Shown here: positions 381-10,466 of the stretch, piece after piece
Position numbering within the stretch: the first letter of the stretch is position 1
Layout: each line of letters opens with the position of its first letter
From: a virus
DNA: 10,466 nt
Virus record (IMG/VR): IMGVR_UViG_3300005614_000040
Span: 64,001 to 74,466 of that record
Direction: 5' to 3' (one strand)
Notes under the pieces: generated by a model
Databases searched by the model: none
Told to the model about the DNA's origin: nothing
The model's input: the letters and a program-made list of their open reading frames with translations, nothing else
Translations under genes and position numbers: made by a program

Positions 381-2488
381 TATGGAACTTCACCTTGGTC
401 TGGAATTCCTTCGGCGGAGCCGAATCCAGTACCACCTGGGGCACCTTGAATTTCTTCGGGCGTGGACGCTGCTTCAACCGCGTGGCGAAGCACGTCACGC
501 CCGGCGCGTGCGAAGTTCTCTTGGTCAAGCAACGCCTGCTTCTGCTGGAACTGCGTCGCCTGCTGCGCCTGCACAGCCTGAAGTTTCATCCGCGCCAGTG
601 CCGCTGGGCTATTGGCCTGAGCACGCTGCTTTTCTTCGTCAGACATTGGAACAACAAGCGATGTGTAGTTCTTGAAGTCCGAAGTCTCCAGGAACATCTT
701 TATCAATTCGTCGATGCTGAGTTTCTTCTGTTCCAACTGAAGTTGCTGTTGAACGTATTGGCCCGTCAAGAACTGCGACATGATCGGAAGGGCTTGAGCC
801 ATCGTCCGGCGCGCCGCGAGTTTCGATCCAGCCAAAATGTCGAAATCAACCCGGGCGTTCAAAAGTTCCAGAACGTCGCCGCCATTGCGCAGATACGCGT
901 GGTCGAGTTCGTCGTTGAGAACCCTCCGGATAACGGAGGCCGGGAGCATCGCCCGGTTCATCTCGTGCAACTGGTAGAGGAACGGGATGATGACGTTAGC
1001 GGACAGACGCTCGATGAAATCTGATACCCGGTTCCCGGAACCGCTGCCAAGCATGTTGGCCCCGGCCGCTGTACGGGCAAGGTTAGAGTGTCCGGATTGG
1101 CCCGCGATGCCTTGCGTCGCAATCTCGTTCACGCCGCCAACCTGTTCTGCGCGCGACTGCGACATCGCGATGTGTTGGGCGGCCTCGGGAACTGCCGGAG
1201 TGCGCTCTAGCGGAGCGAAGTCACCCTGGTTCTCGATGTTGACAATGCGGCCGGGTGCGATTCGAATGTTCTCGATTGGTACGCTCTTGCCGCGAACGCG
1301 CGTCCACACGCCTTGCAGGTTGAGTGTAGCGTTGTCAATGTAGGTATTGGTGAGGCCCTGTTGAAGCCGCTGCTCGCTGCCGATGGTTTTGGCGAGGCCC
1401 AAGCCGTAGAAGGCTTCAGAAACATCCCACCAGTTGACCGACAAGAACGGGATCACTCCGTAGGGATTTTTGTCGTTGCAGATGACCAGCTTCTTCTGCA
1501 AGACAACCATTACCTTTTCGTTGTCCCAGCGCTCCAGAATTTCCAACGGTTCGTTGAATGGATCGATGGTGGCGTCGTTCCACTTTGGGTCGGCGCGCGC
1601 GTCCCAAAGCGGGTTCCGCAAAGCCTGATCTTGTGGGGCCTGGTTCGCGAGTTCGCGCGGGGGCAGGAAGAGGTCAATCAATTCCCGCTCGGAAGGAATC
1701 TTATACCCTGGCCGATCCTTGAGCTTGACCAGGTCGTTATACGTCATGTAGAGACGGTGGATAACGAACTTGCCCTTGGCGATGTGAGGGGTATTCAGCG
1801 TCGGGTCAACGAGAACGTGACGGAGATTAGTAACGTTGTCGAAGAACGGGCGGTCAACAGTTTCTTTGACCACCTCTTCTATAATCTCCTCGTCCTCGGG
1901 TGCCTCCAACGTTACAGGAGGCGCGCCGGGCACGCCGGAAGGAAGGCTCACTGAGCTATCCTTACGCTTGTAAATCTTTCGTTCGCGAGTGAATCGATCC
2001 CAACCCCATTTGAAGATCGAAGTCCCGAACAGGGCGGCATTGCGCACACCCATGCGGATCGATTCGCGAAAATTGATATCGTCTAGCTGATACGCAATGA
2101 TGTCACCGATTGCGCGCGCCGTGTCCGCCGAAGTAGCCGGGCGGGGCTGAATCAAAAACGGCGGGTCATCGAAAAACAACCCGTTGACGATCTGCGGGGT
2201 TACCGAGTTGACTGCGGTTGCAACTGTGTAGAACGGTACATTGGACCGGGGAACAGCCGTACCTTCCCAGAACACCGGGCTAACTGGTGATTGTTCGAGG
2301 ATCGATGCTGTATTCCAACCCGTAACCCACGCCTTGGTGGTGGCGTAATTCTCAGCCTTCTGCGTATCGCTCACTACGAGCTTGAGCGCAGCTTCGTCAC
2401 TCCAGTCACCCGTCCGCTGGATGGCGTGGACTTCGACTGGACTGAGTGGTTCTTGTGGCGGAATTACGGGCTGGTCGAGAAGTGCCAC
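380..2488 (-). CDS. Probable portal protein (702 aa).
   Basis: Large ORF directly downstream of the terminase large subunit on the same strand. This is the canonical packaging-module order (compare the P22-type portal of about 700 aa). The start appears to be GTG (cac at 2486-2488 on plus). It sits just after the stop of the upstream 115-aa ORF, with AAGGA upstream. No similarity search was possible. Confidence 0.55.
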   Translation of the reverse strand: MALLDQPVIPPQEPLSPVEVHAIQRTGDWSDEAALKLVVSDTQKAENYATTKAWVTGWNTASILEQSPVSPVFWEGTAVPRSNVPFYTVATAVNSVTPQIVNGLFFDDPPFLIQPRPATSADTARAIGDIIAYQLDDINFRESIRMGVRNAALFGTSIFKWGWDRFTRERKIYKRKDSSVSLPSGVPGAPPVTLEAPEDEEIIEEVVKETVDRPFFDNVTNLRHVLVDPTLNTPHIAKGKFVIHRLYMTYNDLVKLKDRPGYKIPSERELIDLFLPPRELANQAPQDQALRNPLWDARADPKWNDATIDPFNEPLEILERWDNEKVMVVLQKKLVICNDKNPYGVIPFLSVNWWDVSEAFYGLGLAKTIGSEQRLQQGLTNTYIDNATLNLQGVWTRVRGKSVPIENIRIAPGRIVNIENQGDFAPLERTPAVPEAAQHIAMSQSRAEQVGGVNEIATQGIAGQSGHSNLARTAAGANMLGSGSGNRVSDFIERLSANVIIPFLYQLHEMNRAMLPASVIRRVLNDELDHAYLRNGGDVLELLNARVDFDILAGSKLAARRTMAQALPIMSQFLTGQYVQQQLQLEQKKLSIDELIKMFLETSDFKNYTSLVVPMSDEEKQRAQANSPAALARMKLQAVQAQQATQFQQKQALLDQENFARAGRDVLRHAVEAASTPEEIQGAPGGTGFGSAEGIPDQGEVP

Positions 2489-5885: not shown

Positions 5886-6062
5886 TTAGAGGTTTTTGAG
5901 CCGGGAAAGCATATCCCGTTTGAATTTGATTGCTCCGGCATCCACATCGAGAATCAACGTTTGGATTTTACGGGTGCGGGCATCCATCCGACGTTTGTTG
6001 TCGATCAAAACCAGGACTAAAAATACGACGGCGGCCGTGAGTGCAAAAACTAAATCTGCCAT
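5886..6062 (-). CDS. Small single-pass membrane protein (58 aa).
   Basis: Not in the track because it is under 60 aa. The ATG at 6060-6062 is preceded by TAGGAGGCGAC, an excellent Shine-Dalgarno sequence that overlaps the stop of the 239-aa ORF. Translation: MADLVFALTAAVVFLVLVLIDNKRRMDARTRKIQTLILDVDAGAIKFKRDMLSRLKNL. There is one hydrophobic helix followed by a charged tail. Confidence 0.5.
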   Translation of the reverse strand: MADLVFALTAAVVFLVLVLIDNKRRMDARTRKIQTLILDVDAGAIKFKRDMLSRLKNL

Positions 6063-6070
6063 GTCGCCTC

Positions 6071-6790
6071 CTAGCGGATAGATGCTGCGGCTACCGCGCC
6101 TCCAATTTGGATGCTGGGAACAATGAAGGGCTTGAGTTCAAGCCAGAAACGCGCCGGGAAACTGGTTGGCGGGTGAAGATAGGATTTCATCGCCTTAGTC
6201 TCGACTTGGTTCGCGGTGTCTAGCATCTGGCCCGTGGTTTTGGTAATTCCGTCCACGTTGCGCGCAGTGTCGAGCCAAACCGGATCAGCCAACAAAGTGT
6301 TGAACCGTTCAACCGCATTTCCAGCATTGACTGCAGCCAAGTCTACGTGCCCGGCGATGGGCTGAAAATAAGAGACGGTGGTATCGAGCGTGTGGAGCGT
6401 GGACGTTGCTTGCTGCGCCGTCTGCCCGAGATCGGCAACTGTGCCGCGCCCGGCAGCCAAAGTTGCGTGGATATCGGCAAACAACTGGACTTCCTGGGCG
6501 TCGAGTGCCGCGAGGTTTTTGTTCTCGTGGTTGGCCGCGACTTCGATCTGGCCGAAAGCACCACGGACAGTATTGAGGGTCTTGGCTACGTCGGCGAGAG
6601 TCCCACAGGGATGGTAATTGGCCGGGCTGCCGCAGTCTTGGTTAAGCGTGTCGAGCGTGCCAACGATGTTGGCGCTTATCTTCTGCTCGTCTTTACTCAG
6701 GGTGTAAACGAAACTTGACAGCCGCAACAGCAACAAACACGCGCACAACCCGACCGCGACGATTACGCCTGTCCGGACGGTGTCGTGCAT
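6071..6790 (-). CDS. Membrane-anchored helical protein (239 aa). It has an N-terminal TM helix and a long Ala/Thr/Leu-rich helical ectodomain with two Cys. Possibly an i-spanin or lysis-accessory protein, or an Mce-like helical protein.
   Basis: Hydrophobic segment GVIVAVGLCACLLLL near the N-terminus. The remainder shows a heptad-like Ala/Leu/Thr/Gln pattern. The ATG overlaps the stop of the upstream ORF as TAATG at 6790. Confidence 0.6.
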   Translation of the reverse strand: MHDTVRTGVIVAVGLCACLLLLRLSSFVYTLSKDEQKISANIVGTLDTLNQDCGSPANYHPCGTLADVAKTLNTVRGAFGQIEVAANHENKNLAALDAQEVQLFADIHATLAAGRGTVADLGQTAQQATSTLHTLDTTVSYFQPIAGHVDLAAVNAGNAVERFNTLLADPVWLDTARNVDGITKTTGQMLDTANQVETKAMKSYLHPPTSFPARFWLELKPFIVPSIQIGGAVAAASIR

Positions 6791-7508: not shown

Positions 7509-8141
7509 TTATGCGCGGTCGATCACGAACTCAGTTACGGTCACGCCGTTGACGCCAGCCGTTCCGAACGTAAAGCTCGGGATGAAGTTGAGGTCGCTCG
7601 CTCCAACGCTGGTAGCCTGGGTGATGACTTGGAATGTGCCAGCGGTTCCGGATGGGGTGCCAACTGCGATGTTGACGTTATTGATCTGGTAGGTCATAAC
7701 GCCGCCGTTCAGGGTCTTGGTCTTCGAATCCCAGAACAGCTTGGTTTCGATCAGGAAGCTCTGGGTTCCTGCGCCGCCCGAACTCGTCGCCGCGCCGACC
7801 CAGAGGGCGTTGCCCCCGGTGGGCACATTTGAAGAGTTAAGCTGCGTGCCAGCCGCGATGACGGAAGCAGGCATCTGGTACAGCTTCGGCTCGAAGGTGT
7901 AGCTTCCGGCCGTCAAAACCTTTCCGGCAAGACGCACGACGAACGCATGGCCGTCATACACGGAACCAGCGATGTCGGGCGGAAAAGCGGCGACCAGGCC
8001 GCTTCCAGCAGGAAACGCTGGGGATGGCAGGGTGCCGTAGTTGGTCGTGCTGCTCGGGGTGATAAGCCCGGTCTCGGTGTTTACTGTGATTGACTGAAGA
8101 GGGAGGTCCTGCCAGCCAGCGGTTGTGTTGGTGTTTGCCAC
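7509..8141 (-). CDS. Ser/Thr/Gly/Asn-rich beta-type protein (210 aa). Probable virion structural or decoration protein.
   Basis: Intact ORF with GTG start at 8139-8141. AAGGA lies 7 nt upstream. The composition resembles capsid, tail or decoration proteins. It is a monocistronic unit bounded by a hairpin upstream and a strong terminator downstream. Confidence 0.65.
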   Translation of the reverse strand: MANTNTTAGWQDLPLQSITVNTETGLITPSSTTNYGTLPSPAFPAGSGLVAAFPPDIAGSVYDGHAFVVRLAGKVLTAGSYTFEPKLYQMPASVIAAGTQLNSSNVPTGGNALWVGAATSSGGAGTQSFLIETKLFWDSKTKTLNGGVMTYQINNVNIAVGTPSGTAGTFQVITQATSVGASDLNFIPSFTFGTAGVNGVTVTEFVIDRA

Positions 8142-8206: not shown

Positions 8207-8282
8207 TGGACTCGGCGGCGGGAATCCAACCCGCAACTACTCGGTTAGGAACCGAGGACCCATGCTTTTAGGTGACGCCGAG
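8207..8282 (-). tRNA. tRNA-Arg (anticodon CCU, decodes AGG).
   Basis: Hand fold, 76 nt. Acceptor CTCGGCG/CGCCGAG is a perfect 7 bp. D-stem ACCT/GGGT. Anticodon stem CTCGG/CCGAG with loop TTCCTAA. T-stem GCGGG/CCCGC. CCA is encoded. The D-loop has C19 and the T-loop has G56, a compensatory swap of the usual G19:C56 pair. Confidence 0.7.
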
Positions 8283-8283
8283 A

Positions 8284-8359
8284 TGGAGAACCCGCCCGGA
8301 TTCAAACCGGGATATCAACCTTCGGAGGGTTGTGCTCTATTCTTTTGAACTACGGGTTC
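8284..8359 (-). tRNA. tRNA-Arg (anticodon CCG, decodes CGG).
   Basis: Hand fold, 76 nt. Acceptor GAACCCG/CGGGTTC. Anticodon stem CAACC/GGTTG with loop CTCCGAA. T-stem CCCGG/CCGGG with loop TTTGAAT. CCA is encoded. An A19:U56 covariation is present. A 1-nt spacer separates it from the preceding tRNA. Confidence 0.7.
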
Positions 8360-8364
8360 GTAGG

Positions 8365-8439
8365 TGGGGCGCGGACGAGGATTCAAACCTCGGTTCAGGG
8401 CTTAGAAGGACCTGGCTTATTCCATTAGCTGATCCGCGC
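8365..8439 (-). tRNA. tRNA-Arg (anticodon UCU, decodes AGA). Probable.
   Basis: Hand fold, 75 nt. Acceptor GCGCGGA/TCCGCGC is perfect. T-arm CGAGG-TTTGAAT-CCTCG. D-loop has GG. Anticodon loop CTTCTAA. The anticodon stem has one U:C mismatch and the D-stem has 3 bp. Confidence 0.55.
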
Positions 8440-8605
8440 TTATTTCTTCGGAATGAATCCGCCGCGCGACGCGAAGTTAATGCTGAAAGGCCGGGTAACC
8501 TGGGTGGTACCGTTGTGGTACGTTACTTCGAGGGCCTTACCGCGTTCGAGTCTAGGAGTCATTATTTTGAATTGTACCACAGACAGAGAAATCTGTCAAG
8601 GAAAT

Positions 8606-8681
8606 TGGTGGGTCCGGAGGGAATCGAACCCTCATCACGTCGCTTAAAAGGCGGGTCTCTAGCCAGTTGAGTTACGAACCC
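8606..8681 (-). tRNA. tRNA-Lys (anticodon UUU) with an atypical, weak anticodon stem.
   Basis: Hand fold, 76 nt. Acceptor GGGTTCG/CGGACCC has one G:U. T-arm GAGGG-TTCGATT-CCCTC. D-loop has GG. Anticodon loop CTTTTAA with U33 and A37. The two outer base pairs of the anticodon stem are C:C and C:A mismatches. Confidence 0.55.
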
Positions 8682-8682
8682 T

Positions 8683-8759
8683 TGGTGCGCCGGGCTGGAT
8701 TTGAACCAGCATCATTCTCCTTAAGAGGGAGATATAATCAGCCGTTATACGACCGACGC
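8683..8759 (-). tRNA. tRNA-Lys (anticodon CUU).
   Basis: Hand fold, 77 nt. Acceptor GCGTCGG/CCGGCGC has one G:U. Anticodon stem TCTCC/GGAGA with loop CTCTTAA. T-arm GCTGG-TTCAAAT-CCAGC. CCA is encoded. Only 1 nt separates it from the preceding tRNA-Lys(UUU). Confidence 0.65.
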
Positions 8760-8761
8760 AA

Positions 8762-8855
8762 TGGTAGAGGAGGAGGGAATCGAACCCTTACTGGCATCGG
8801 TCATCTACCGACTACAGAGGCTATAAGGCTCCGCCGCGCGCCCGCGCTCTCCTCT
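8762..8855 (-). ncRNA. tRNA-like element (about 94 nt with CCA) with canonical 3' half but an aberrant 5' half and anticodon region. Possibly a degenerate long-variable-arm tRNA or a tRNA 3'-fragment.
   Basis: Textbook T-arm AAGGG-TTCGATT-CCCTC, acceptor 3' strand CTCCTCT, discriminator A and CCA. A perfectly complementary AGAGGAG lies 94 nt away, but both strands are low complexity. The intervening sequence is extremely GC-rich (CGCGGGCGCGCGGCGG). No anticodon loop with U33 carrying a Ser/Leu/Tyr anticodon could be drawn. The 5' 50 nt lie inside the 3' end of the GT2 coding sequence. Confidence 0.35.
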
Positions 8856-9479
8856 AAAAAATTCTTTCGGCAGACTATTCCTGTCCACCACAGGCCACCC
8901 TGTAGGTTTCTGGTTGGCGGAGTGGAGCACGCAAACCATATTATCACCTGCGGGTTTGGAAGTAAACCAAGGAAACGCCCGGTTCACAAAAATCAGGTCT
9001 TCGCCGTAGGAAACTTTTTCGTCGAACAGATGGCCGAGTGCCCACTGTCGGCGGTAAATCAGCGTTGCGCCCCACAAGCAACTACCCGAGTACCGCGACG
9101 CCTCGCCTGTGTTTTCGTTCCAAAAGTAACAGGAACCGTACCCACCCAGCTTCAATTCTTCCGCGCCCATCATTGCCACTTGATCGGCAAGGCGGTACGG
9201 AGAAGACCAATCGTCGGCATCAAAATGGCAGATAAACTCACCGCGCGCAACCCGAATACCTGCGTTTCGTTTTTCGGCAAGGTTCGCGGCTGGCTTGAAA
9301 ATGTAGGTGACACCTGGTACATCTTTGACCAGGTCGGCGATAGGTTCATCGCCGTCATCTACAACAATGAGTTCCTTGTTCGGCCAAGTCTGGGATAGGT
9401 AACACTCGATGGCGCGGACGACGCGACCTCGCATGTTGTGGTGACAAAGCAAAACCGACACCATCTCAGTTGTGGACAT
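8805..9479 (-). CDS. Glycosyltransferase family 2 (GT-A fold), 224 aa.
   Basis: The N-terminal beta1-alpha1 signature is VSVLLCHHNMRGRVVRAIECYLSQTWPNKELIVVDDGDEP, of the V-S-V-x-x-x-x-x-N ... E-I-I-V-V-D-D-G type. A downstream DXD-type motif FDADDW is present. The ATG at 9477-9479 overlaps the stop of the upstream GT by 14 nt. Confidence 0.75.
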   Translation of the reverse strand: MSTTEMVSVLLCHHNMRGRVVRAIECYLSQTWPNKELIVVDDGDEPIADLVKDVPGVTYIFKPAANLAEKRNAGIRVARGEFICHFDADDWSSPYRLADQVAMMGAEELKLGGYGSCYFWNENTGEASRYSGSCLWGATLIYRRQWALGHLFDEKVSYGEDLIFVNRAFPWFTSKPAGDNMVCVLHSANQKPTGWPVVDRNSLPKEFFRGERGRAAEPYSLCSR

Positions 9480-10077
9480 ACATCAAATCCCTGGCCACAC
9501 CCCACTTCAATTTCTTCGTCAAATCCTGCAGCGTTGTTCTGTCTACGCCGGAGCACGCGGGCACCAGGGGTTTGTTCAGCCAACCTTTGAACTTGGCGCG
9601 TTTCACTAAGAACGATGGCTTATATCCCGGAAAGCCGGGTTTGCCAAGCTGCAGGACTCGGTAGCCGTCAATTCCGCAGGTCTCAGGCCCGGTCAAGGTT
9701 GACTCACACAGCACCAGATCGAGATTATTCCTGACCGCCTCGGTCAACATTCTTTGTGTCCACTGCGGCGGATAGTAGCAGTCTTCGCAGGGAAAGCAAA
9801 CCCATTTACCTTTGGCCTGGTTAAGCCCGACTTCTGATGACCAGTAGCAGTCTGATACTTTGATCTTTCCGGCCGTTCGCAGATAGCGAAACCGCTTGTC
9901 CTTCAACTTCTCGACGATCCGCTTCTGCTGGTGCGCGACGGTTTTGTCTTCCGTGTTGTCGGTTACGATCACTTCGTAGTCTTCGTGGGTTTGACCCTTG
10001 ATTGACCACAAACACGCCGCCAGGAAATCTGGTCGATTGTAGAGCGAAACAACGTAGCTGACTTCGACCTGGGGCAT
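9466..10077 (-). CDS. Glycosyltransferase family 2-like (about 203 aa from MPQVEV).
   Basis: GT2 N-terminal signature EVSYVVSLYNRPDFLAACLWSIKGQTHEDYEVIVTDNTED. The ATG is at 10075-10077. The longer track ORF (to 10278) would run through the tRNA-Pro gene, so the internal start is preferred. Confidence 0.65.
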   Translation of the reverse strand: MPQVEVSYVVSLYNRPDFLAACLWSIKGQTHEDYEVIVTDNTEDKTVAHQQKRIVEKLKDKRFRYLRTAGKIKVSDCYWSSEVGLNQAKGKWVCFPCEDCYYPPQWTQRMLTEAVRNNLDLVLCESTLTGPETCGIDGYRVLQLGKPGFPGYKPSFLVKRAKFKGWLNKPLVPACSGVDRTTLQDLTKKLKWGVARDLMYVHN

Positions 10078-10234
10078 TTTTAATGGCACCGGACTGGCGA
10101 ATTGGACGCCACTCGGAGGTTTTGGAGACCTCTGTGATCCCAGATCGTCCGGCAAAAATGGAGCACCCGAGTGGAGTCTAACCACCGTCTCGATGTTCGT
10201 AGCATCGTGTCCTATACGTTGAACGACAGGCGCA

Positions 10235-10310
10235 TGGTCGGAAAGGTGAGATTCGAACTCACGTCGTCTCGCTCCCAAAGCGAGTGCCTAAGCCTCTAGG
10301 CTACTTTCCG
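10235..10310 (-). tRNA. tRNA-Pro (anticodon UGG).
   Basis: Fully canonical hand fold, 76 nt. Acceptor CGGAAAG/CTTTCCG. D-stem GCCT/AGGC with GG in the loop. Anticodon stem CTCGC/GCGAG with loop TTTGGGA. T-arm GTGAG-TTCGAAT-CTCAC. Discriminator A and CCA are encoded. Confidence 0.85.
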
Positions 10311-10315
10311 AAAAA

Positions 10316-10402
10316 TGGTCTAGGTAGCTGGATTTGAACCAGCGTAACCCCGAAGGGACACGTTCCCGAAACGTGTGGCAGACCGGACTTGCCGATACCT
10401 AG
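10316..10402 (-). tRNA. Type-II (long variable arm) tRNA, 87 nt, whose anticodon reads CGG by hand folding. This is a proline-codon anticodon on a Ser/Leu-type body.
   Basis: Acceptor CTAGGTA/TACCTAG is perfect. D-stem is 3 bp (GGC/GCC) with an 11-nt loop containing GG. Anticodon stem CACGT/ACGTG with loop TTCGGGA, so positions 34-36 are CGG. The variable arm is CCC-TTCG-GGG. T-arm GCTGG-TTCAAAT-CCAGC. Discriminator A and CCA. Confidence 0.55.
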
Positions 10403-10403
10403 A

Positions 10404-10466
10404 TGGTGCCAACTCAGGGAGTTCAACCCTGCTCTACTGTGCTTCAAACAGTCGTAGCGAGCGCGT
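10404..10466 (-). tRNA. tRNA-Phe (anticodon GAA), truncated by the window edge. The 3' 63 nt are visible.
   Basis: T-arm CAGGG-TTGAACT-CCCTG. Acceptor 3' strand AGTTGGC plus A and CCA. Anticodon stem ACTGT/ACAGT with loop TTGAAGC. It begins 1 nt after the preceding tRNA. Confidence 0.5.

Follow-up and report, generated by a model that had tools for sequence, protein, structure and literature searches.

A glycosyltransferase gene pair inserted in a conserved phage tRNA array and its possible role in virion glycosylation

Introduction

Family 2 glycosyltransferase (GT2) genes and the glycosylation of virions are already known from phages. In the literature found, self-encoded virion glycosylation in tailed phages has been shown experimentally for a few actinobacteriophages only, with altered antibody recognition as a consequence; according to two later papers, the enzymes of Che8 and Corndog glycosylate capsid and tail-tube subunits and shield the virions from antibodies (PMC12363180; PMC12619734). 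The present work concerns two tandem, overlapping GT2 genes of an uncultured phage, called GT-B (203-aa protein) and GT-A (224-aa protein). They lie in the final 10.5 kb of a 74,477-bp metagenomic contig (ENA ERZ27252105 k141_4674152), available as positions 64,001 to 74,466 of IMG/VR record IMGVR_UViG_3300005614_000040. This stretch of 10,466 nt is referred to as the window; its position 10466 is the contig end, and 17.6 kb of the 74.5-kb contig was read. GT-A fold, as distinct from the protein GT-A, denotes the structural class, and L-numbers denote the phage and metagenomic loci compared. What is new is, on the one hand, a set of two uncharacterised, almost phage-only families that move together and recur in the head/neck modules of diverse uncultured phages and, on the other, a precisely delimited insertion of such a pair into a conserved tRNA array.

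The closest described systems are those of the mycobacteriophages. In Corndog, the genes (gp35-38) lie within the head module, in the order portal, TylF-like methyltransferase, gp36, GT2-like gp37 (230 aa), GT25 gp38 (206 aa), and capsid protease. In Che8, the far right genome end carries the tandem, overlapping genes gp108 (a GT2-methyltransferase fusion), GT2-like gp109 (232 aa), and GT25 gp110 (211 aa), just upstream of the packaging genes and much as in the window. The two systems and the window pair are alike in being tandem, overlapping, short, soluble GT-A-fold genes (206-232 aa in the mycobacteriophages). A sugar O-methyltransferase accompanies the Che8 and Corndog genes and also some cassettes homologous to the window pair (L015, L018, and the fusion protein P0234), whereas the window has none. 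The mycobacteriophage enzymes belong to GT25, to a divergent Glyco_tranf_2_2-like group, and to the GT2-methyltransferase fusion, with no detectable orthology to the window pair; the likeness is architectural, not evolutionary. Furthermore, virion glycosylation in mycobacteriophages has been shown by experiment, whereas the window pair is known from its genes alone. The original work on the mycobacteriophage virion-glycosylation genes is reportedly that of Freeman et al. 2023, as told by the papers citing it.

Another parallel is A064R of the chlorovirus PBCV-1, which consists of three domains of ~200 aa; two of them are rhamnosyltransferases and the third is a methyltransferase, and together they complete the glycan of the capsid (PMC9614988). 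It has in common with the pair a series of virus-encoded, cytoplasmic GT modules of ~200 aa, and some proteins of the GT-B family, too, are fusions with a GT or a methyltransferase. Its first domain (A064R-D1) is a retaining GT-A-fold enzyme of a different family from a eukaryotic virus, whereas the window genes are separate, not fused, and this domain does not figure in the list of the 50 best-matching PDB folds for GT-B.

The two glycosyltransferase genes

Both genes are intact, and they stand in tandem with an overlap on the minus strand where the preliminary description had placed them (Table 1). The 14-nt overlap implies co-transcription of GT-B and GT-A and probably coupled translation. 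The start of GT-B was set at the ATG at 10077 and not at the TTG at 10278, to which the list of open reading frames (ORFs) extends it, because the longer frame crosses tRNA-Arg(acg) and tRNA-Pro(tgg), and because the N-termini of 44 homologues and an independent gene call agree with the ATG. Pfam PF00535 (Glycos_transf_2) matches GT-A with 68.7 bits (E 7.8e-19) and GT-B with 63.2 bits (E 3.7e-17), both about 40 bits over the cut-off of 23.3 bits. In NCBIfam, neither protein has an equivalog, all matches being far below the cut-offs, and PADLOC returned nothing.

The GT-A motifs quoted in the preliminary description were found as LIVVDDGDE (residues 37-45) and FDADDW (residues 86-91). In the alignment of 12 GT-A family members, D87, D89, and D90 are invariant, and little or no variation is seen at D42, G43, K70, N72, E160, and D161, the KRN motif included; E160-D161, which are kept in a YGED context, are candidates for the catalytic base. 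In GT-B, TDN (residues 39-41) replaces DDG, and (E/D)98-D99 replaces the textbook DXD. The residues T39, D40, N41, D99, and D179 are invariant in the alignment of 45 sequences of this family, E98-D99 aligns with D98-D99 of SpsA, and the acidic D179 is a candidate for the catalytic base.

Both proteins lack hydrophobic segments: the Kyte-Doolittle mean over 19 residues peaks at 0.69 in one and 0.79 in the other, while the same measure gives 2.4 and 2.8 for the helices of the putative membrane proteins p239 and p58 encoded nearby. The earlier claim that both transferases lack a C-terminal membrane anchor was thus borne out. A recent tandem duplication as the origin of the pair was considered and ruled out, since BLASTP of GT-A against GT-B gave no significant similarity.

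Fold and nearest characterised enzymes

The AlphaFold2 model of GT-B, built with 45 sequences, has a pLDDT of 96.5 and a pTM of 0.92. Its 50 best PDB matches listed by Foldseek are all GT-A-fold glycosyltransferases, with SpsA at the top (E 2.4e-11, TM-score 0.72) and WrtF, AvpGT, RmlT, K4CP, and TarP also present; the Rossmann proteins outside the glycosyltransferases, which were the other prospect raised for these ORFs, do not appear among them. GT-A matches GT2 structures of the PDB by sequence at E 1e-8, namely chondroitin synthase and PglI-type enzymes. Both proteins are bona fide GT2 glycosyltransferases of the GT-A fold and are predicted to be metal-dependent.

By sequence and fold together, the nearest characterised relatives are WcaA, TuaG, EpsE, PglI, SpsA, RmlT, and TarP. 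The best sequence and structure matches, Bacillus subtilis SpsA, WrtF, RmlT, K4CP, and TarP, have in common with the pair the GT-A fold, the Asp-rich nucleotide-binding N-terminal half, and a DXD-type metal site. Identity over the fold is only 14-18%, the acceptor-binding C-terminal halves are unrelated, and the extra oligomerisation or second catalytic domains of the SpsA-type enzymes are missing from both GT-B and GT-A. Those enzymes are cellular, except that TarP is prophage-borne, and their acceptors are polysaccharide or teichoic acid.

GtrB of the O-antigen-converting prophages has the GT2 catalytic domain in common with the pair. Transmembrane helices make up its C-terminal part, and its partners are the GtrA flippase and GtrC, whereas the pair is without all three: the window has no ORF for GtrA, GtrC, or a flippase, and the neighbours of the pair are tRNA genes. 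GT-A matches a GtrB-like PHROG family faintly (E 0.008) over its N-terminal 100 residues. The preliminary description had taken the missing anchor to argue against seroconversion. The pair is indeed not of the GtrB type; the inference itself went too far, as cell-wall polymers are also substrates of soluble GT2 enzymes, TarP among them.

Two families recurring as a pair

GT-B has 54 close homologues at 42-68% identity, and an exhaustive profile search gave 105 clusters (50% identity) at E<=1e-30, nearly all of 185-235 aa and matching end to end. A conserved-peptide-pattern scan of 185,579 bacterial and archaeal species (one genome each) found no member of the family and returned only generic GT2 proteins at 22-32% identity (41% over 64 residues), mostly with partial cover of the query, which suggests that the GT-B family is essentially confined to phage-type or metagenomic contigs. 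The GT-A family is smaller, and its close members (34-48% identity) are all on phage-like contigs. In deposited phage genomes, tblastn with either protein gave matches only over the N-terminal half, at 26-36% identity. The lack of cellular members of the GT-B family, together with the metagenomic origin of all close GT-A relatives, argues against lysogenic conversion by prophages. The predicted isoelectric points (pI) have a median of 8.6 in the GT-B family (mildly basic) and 5.6 in the GT-A family (acidic).

The two families are neighbours in at least five unrelated phage backbones, which share nothing else with this phage. In L012-14, an A-like gene (43% identity) is followed by a B-like gene (64%). 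The HK97-type siphovirus L015-17 has TerL, portal, ClpP, capsid, connector, two A-like genes (35% and 41%), a B-like gene (65%), an FkbM-type methyltransferase (Methyltransf_21), head closure, gp10, and tail completion. L062 has capsid, a 223-aa gene, an A-like (38%) and a B-like gene (46%), an RmlD/epimerase gene, and head closure. In L060/61, the B-like gene stands before TerS, while the A-like gene and one further GT2 gene lie between connector and head closure. L064-66 has the B-like gene (54%) and then the A-like gene (42%), with the order and the 14-nt overlap of the window; the A-then-B arrangements overlap by 4 nt (L012, L015) and 31 nt (L062). L018 and L063 carry a B-like gene with a more distant GT2 paralogue, and L018 adds Methyltransf_24 and has its major head protein gene 2 kb downstream of the cassette. 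Lastly, L006-L011 have an A-like gene alone, after a Mu-F minor head protein gene and beside terminase, portal, and capsid genes. Leaving the window aside, eight backbones carry GT-B-like or GT-A-like genes, and five of these have them directly beside, or between, recognised genes for capsid, connector, head closure, Mu-F, or terminase.

Three proteins of the GT-B family are fusions, one with a GT6 domain, one with a GT92-like domain, and one with an S-adenosylmethionine methyltransferase (P0234). Such fusions to a second glycosyltransferase or to a methyltransferase point to multi-step glycan assembly with methylation, and they indicate that the pair would belong to a glycan-building pathway of several steps in which methylation is optional. 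The pathway travels as a cassette among unrelated phages.

Insertion into a conserved tRNA array

Three tRNA genes lie upstream of the pair and five downstream, so the earlier placement between two tRNA blocks stands. All eight exceed the Rfam tRNA gathering score (with permissive search filters), and the contig ends 64 nt past the upstream block. No match at the DNA level was found for the window in 50,697 deposited phage records (megablast), and deposited phage genomes, actinobacteriophages included, gave no close relative of this phage. Relatives were found through TerL (37-64% identity), the portal protein (50-60%), and a 210-aa protein encoded downstream of the array (33-70%). Four of them (L027, L028, L029, and L032) have 9-26 tRNAs in the stretches examined, directly upstream of the 210-aa gene, and keep the local tRNA order ...Phe-Pro-(Pro)-Arg(acg)-[Trp or Arg(tcg)]...Lys(ctt)-(Lys(ttt))-Arg.... 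The junction that is filled by 1.27 kb of GT genes here measures 184-575 nt without GT genes in these four, and in L027-L029 no GT gene was found anywhere in the stretches examined. Since the four relatives keep the tRNA order without the pair, the pair is an insertion.

Horizontal acquisition, as proposed in the preliminary description, is supported by these flanking tRNAs without GT genes and by the pairing of the same GT families in unrelated phages. The GC content, third-position GC content, GC skew, and codon usage of the pair are inside the range of the neighbouring genes, so composition offers no evidence of recent transfer. The further label of a "moron" does not hold in the strict sense of a gene with its own promoter and terminator: a consensus scan found neither flanking the pair, and the sole strong promoter-like site lies downstream of it, within the 166-nt spacer, from where it could drive the 210-aa gene and the three Arg tRNAs.

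A predicted tRNA-like gene with the anticodon UAU and a long variable arm, which first showed as a faint Rfam match, marks where the insertion ends on its downstream side. The acceptor stem measures 7 bp, the T-arm reads GGTTCGATTCC, the anticodon loop is CUUAUAG, and the element ends in ACCA. At a relaxed threshold, ARAGORN labels it tRNA-Ile(tat), while ARAGORN at default settings and the Rfam gathering threshold miss it in the window, L027, L028, and L029. In all four relatives, its equivalent lies directly 5' of tRNA-Lys(ctt). Across the five sequences, the element is 91-94 nt long and has a class-II shape, a pair 31-39 that is always mismatched, and mostly A73; compensatory changes at 15 of 25 pairs support the cloverleaf and the extra arm. 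The window copy has a GC hairpin in place of the D-arm. Its amino-acid identity may be Ile, or Leu/Tyr-like; AUA is rare, making up 17 of 268 Ile codons, which are too few residues for recoding statistics. The element overlaps the final 17 codons and the stop of GT-A, which is exactly the C-terminal tail missing from the GT-A homologues, those codons being found in no other family member. This overlap with a unique tail places the insertion between tRNA-Arg(acg) and the element, with the GT-A frame ending inside the latter.

The arrays of the relatives (22-26 tRNAs) are interspersed with ORFs for an HNH endonuclease, a SprT-like protease, and a metallophosphatase. These genes make the array an insertion hotspot for accessory genes, and the tRNA arrays of this phage group are in this sense landing pads. 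A public gene caller reports an ORF of 112 aa on the opposite strand; it overlaps with the tRNAs and is unlikely to be genuine.

Possible acceptors of the glycan

The chance that the pair is a portable cassette building a short glycan on virion proteins is put at about even, by analogy with the systems described above. GT-B and GT-A would be made from one transcript as cytoplasmic transferases and would presumably act one after the other, drawing on host nucleotide-sugars. The short glycan would be attached to virion proteins ahead of assembly or in its course, most likely to the capsid or to exposed fibre or decoration proteins, and the likely benefit would be a masked or altered particle surface. 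The cassette moves horizontally between unrelated phages and has landed here in the tRNA array.

Virion proteins, one of the possible substrates named at the outset, are the best-supported class of acceptor by gene-neighbourhood analogy because five of the eight other backbones place the genes among head, neck, or terminase genes. They are also favoured because the accompanying FkbM/TylF-type O-methyltransferases and RmlD-type epimerase resemble the enzymes of the mycobacteriophage clusters. The window pair itself is upstream of the packaging and head genes.

Several points weigh against this reading, the case for which consists of gene neighbourhood and analogy. The window pair sits in a tRNA array, outside the head genes, and phage insertions in late operons are often morons unrelated to the virion. 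In L064-66, the pair is found amid replication and recombination genes (PD-(D/E)XK nuclease, AAA_24, and PolA), and the genes flanking the L012 pair have no PHROG matches and no recognisable function. BLASTP of the Che8 and Corndog enzymes against the window pair gave no significant alignment, and the sole profile match, of the GT-A profile to the N-terminus of Che8 gp108, has 18 bits and covers the generic GT2 core. The capsid proteins encoded beside homologous cassettes have no Ser/Thr-rich C-terminal tails. In addition, DNA-modification genes could lie in the other 57 kb of the contig beyond the 17.6 kb. The site in the tRNA array and the replication site in L064 are not disqualifying, since the Che8 genes are also located outside the structural block.

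If the pair does act on virion proteins, the two families, with ~100 GT-B clusters at 50% identity, would mark a portable glycosylation cassette. Capsid glycosylation would then reach well beyond the actinobacteriophages, and sugar-coated virions would probably be common. Compact enzymes of 200 aa and a clear set of genomes would be at hand for testing.

Phage DNA, also named among the possible substrates, is the main alternative, though a doubtful acceptor. The pair would in that case attach one or two sugars to a base bearing a hydroxymethyl or another activating group and so protect the genome from restriction or CRISPR. GT-A-fold phage enzymes, sequential glycosyltransferases, and epimerases are documented for the glycosylation of DNA (5-hydroxymethylcytosine), sometimes near terminase genes, and the enzymes linked to 5mYOX or ThyS have a generic R...DDD...ED motif pattern in common with the pair (bioRxiv 10.1101/2023.12.21.572611). 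The L064-66 pair among nuclease, AAA_24, UDG-like, and PolA genes, the L060 B-like gene abutting the replication module and TerS, and the mildly basic GT-B family fit such a role, as does the fact that most of the contig is unseen. On the other side, the defining neighbours of those enzymes are not in any neighbourhood read here: out to 8-10 kb from the pair, the 17.6 kb read of this contig and the homologous loci examined have no Pfam match on record for 5mYOX/TET-JBP, for a C5-methyltransferase with an oxygenase, or for a ThyS-like hydroxymethylase. Capsid and neck genes enclose most of the cassettes, the proteins of the GT-A family are acidic, and the sugar O-methyltransferases that accompany the cassettes are of the FkbM/TylF type, as in the virion-glycosylating mycobacteriophages. 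Should the pair glycosylate DNA instead, it would represent a new route without the known 5mYOX or ThyS partners.

Action on host-envelope glycans is distinctly unlikely. The pair would work on the cytoplasmic side of the membrane, with lipid-linked intermediates of O-antigen, capsule, or teichoic acid as its substrates, and the changed cell surface could, for example, exclude superinfection or keep progeny from adsorbing to debris. The nearest characterised enzymes listed above make cell-envelope polysaccharides, soluble GT2 enzymes need no transmembrane helices for such substrates, and the faint match of GT-A to the GtrB-like PHROG points the same way. These similarities are limited to the generic nucleotide-binding half and are far below every NCBIfam equivalog cut-off, and the pair has neither a GtrA/GtrC or flippase partner nor a transmembrane segment. 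Moreover, the GT-B family is absent from the cellular genomes scanned and so from the prophages sampled in them, and the 9-26 tRNAs, with no integrase in the regions read, are more typical of virulent phages.

It is very improbable that the pair was recruited to the array to glycosylate phage tRNAs or another RNA, and just as improbable that its expression is governed by processing of the overlapping tRNA(UAU)-like gene, at which RNase P cleavage would remove the GT-A stop codon: the pair does lie inside the array, is apparently co-transcribed with the tRNAs, and overlaps the tRNA-like gene at its 3' end, and a GT2-type (GT-A-fold) enzyme glycosylates queuosine in vertebrates, but tRNA glycosylation is disfavoured by the homologous cassettes (L012, L015, L018, L060, L062, and L063) and A-like genes (L006 and L009) in loci without tRNA genes, by the tRNA-rich relatives without GT genes at this junction, and by the HNH, SprT-like, and metallophosphatase genes of the array, which mark it as a plain insertion hotspot.

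Candidate acceptor proteins in the virion

For glycosylation of virion proteins, the preliminary description had pointed to the Ser/Thr-rich 210-aa protein encoded about 700 nt downstream as the obvious acceptor. The ORF is there, starting 663 nt after the GT-A stop with 22% Ser+Thr, and has 62 homologues, of which the Ser+Thr median is 25%. Its special standing is lost, as the gene occurs in relatives without GT genes in the stretches examined (it is doubled in L029), its Ser/Thr content is below the family median, and the loci sampled from other GT carriers (L012, L015, L018, L006, and L009) do not contain it. The TNF/C1q-like jelly roll is a fold typical of trimeric fibre tips and lectins. 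The 210-aa protein is probably an exposed trimeric virion protein of the fibre or decoration type and could bear glycans like other surface proteins; nothing singles it out. A weak paralogue, p234 (234 aa; 26% identity, E 3e-4), is encoded beyond the capsid gene, and both proteins have a C-terminal ...VTVTEF motif.

The capsid proteins of this phage and of a relative end in ...QSETSSS and ...QAQTGS, respectively, a weak hint, by analogy with the glycans reported at C-termini in mycobacteriophages, that the capsid protein may be at least as good a candidate as the 210-aa protein.

Genomic setting and other features

All genes of the window are on the minus strand (Table 1). The earlier label of a "structural/lysis region" is correct in its first half, with TerL, portal, and major head protein genes downstream of the pair, while no lysin domain was found. 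The proteins p239 (239 aa) and p58 (58 aa) have one strongly hydrophobic N-terminal helix each and are possibly lysis or membrane proteins. Against Pfam and PHROG families, neither gave a holin or endolysin match, so the lysis part of the label is unverified.

Table 1. Positions of the features in the window and in the loci compared; the rows down to the major head protein follow the gene order along the minus strand of the contig.
Feature	Locus	Position	Strand	Description
tRNA-Pro(cgg), tRNA-Pro(tgg), tRNA-Arg(acg)	window	10159..10402	-	ARAGORN; Rfam tRNA 44-63 bits
Leader, tRNA-Arg(acg) to GT-B start	window	10078..10158	-	81 nt, no consensus promoter found
GT-B	window	9466..10077	-	203 aa, soluble GT2 (GT-A fold); Pfam PF00535
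Overlap of GT-B stop with GT-A start	window	9466..9479	-	14 nt, ATGTCCACAACTGA
GT-A	window	8805..9479	-	224 aa, soluble GT2; Pfam PF00535
tRNA-like gene, anticodon UAU, long variable arm	window	8762..8855	-	94 nt; ARAGORN at relaxed threshold
tRNA-Lys(ctt), tRNA-Lys(ttt)	window	8606..8759	-	directly downstream of the pair; followed by the 166-nt spacer
Sigma-70-like promoter	window	8571..8599	-	TTGACA, 17-nt spacer, TACAAT, extended -10 TG; 11/12; consensus match only
tRNA-Arg(tct), tRNA-Arg(ccg), tRNA-Arg(cct)	window	8207..8439	-	ARAGORN
210-aa protein	window	7509..8141	-	TNF/C1q-like jelly-roll fold; conserved gene of the phage group, outside the cassette
Eight small proteins, two with an N-terminal membrane helix	window		-	
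Large terminase TerL	window		-	phrog_38, E 1e-42
SU10-type portal	window		-	PF23899, E 3e-31
Major head protein	contig			phrog_1357; further along the contig, past the portal
p239	window	6071-6790	-	239 aa
p58	window	5886-6062	-	58 aa
Equivalent of the tRNA-like gene	L027	4050-4140		
Equivalent of the tRNA-like gene	L028	about 576-672		
Equivalent of the tRNA-like gene	L029	7355-7447		
Equivalent of the tRNA-like gene	L032	8733-8824		
tRNA array with accessory ORFs	L032	1424-9926		
tRNA array with accessory ORFs	L027	59-4763		
tRNA array with accessory ORFs	L029	4442-8091		
p234	L005	16032-16736		weak paralogue of the 210-aa protein
Three endonuclease-type genes	L005	13166-13669, 10441-10854, 16740-17417		head module of this contig
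Split TerL/major-head genes	L024	1-2220 and 7225-10161		
Split TerL/major-head genes	L025	1-2046 and 7051-9987		

The head module of this contig is dotted with HNH/endonuclease VII-type genes, encoding proteins of 137 aa (phrog_5046) and 167 aa (phrog_3322), and a 225-aa protein of the same module gives a third, weak endonuclease VII match (E 4.5e-4). These scattered genes would fit an intense traffic of homing endonucleases among phages of this group. In the related IMG/VR phages L024 and L025, the similarity to the proteins of this phage is broken up, into 2 separated pieces for TerL and 5 for the capsid protein. The gaps between the pieces are about 0.1-1.2 kb long, and one gap holds a homologue of the HNH-like 137-aa protein (p137). 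The broken matches suggest that essential structural genes are interrupted by introns, inteins, or homing endonucleases.

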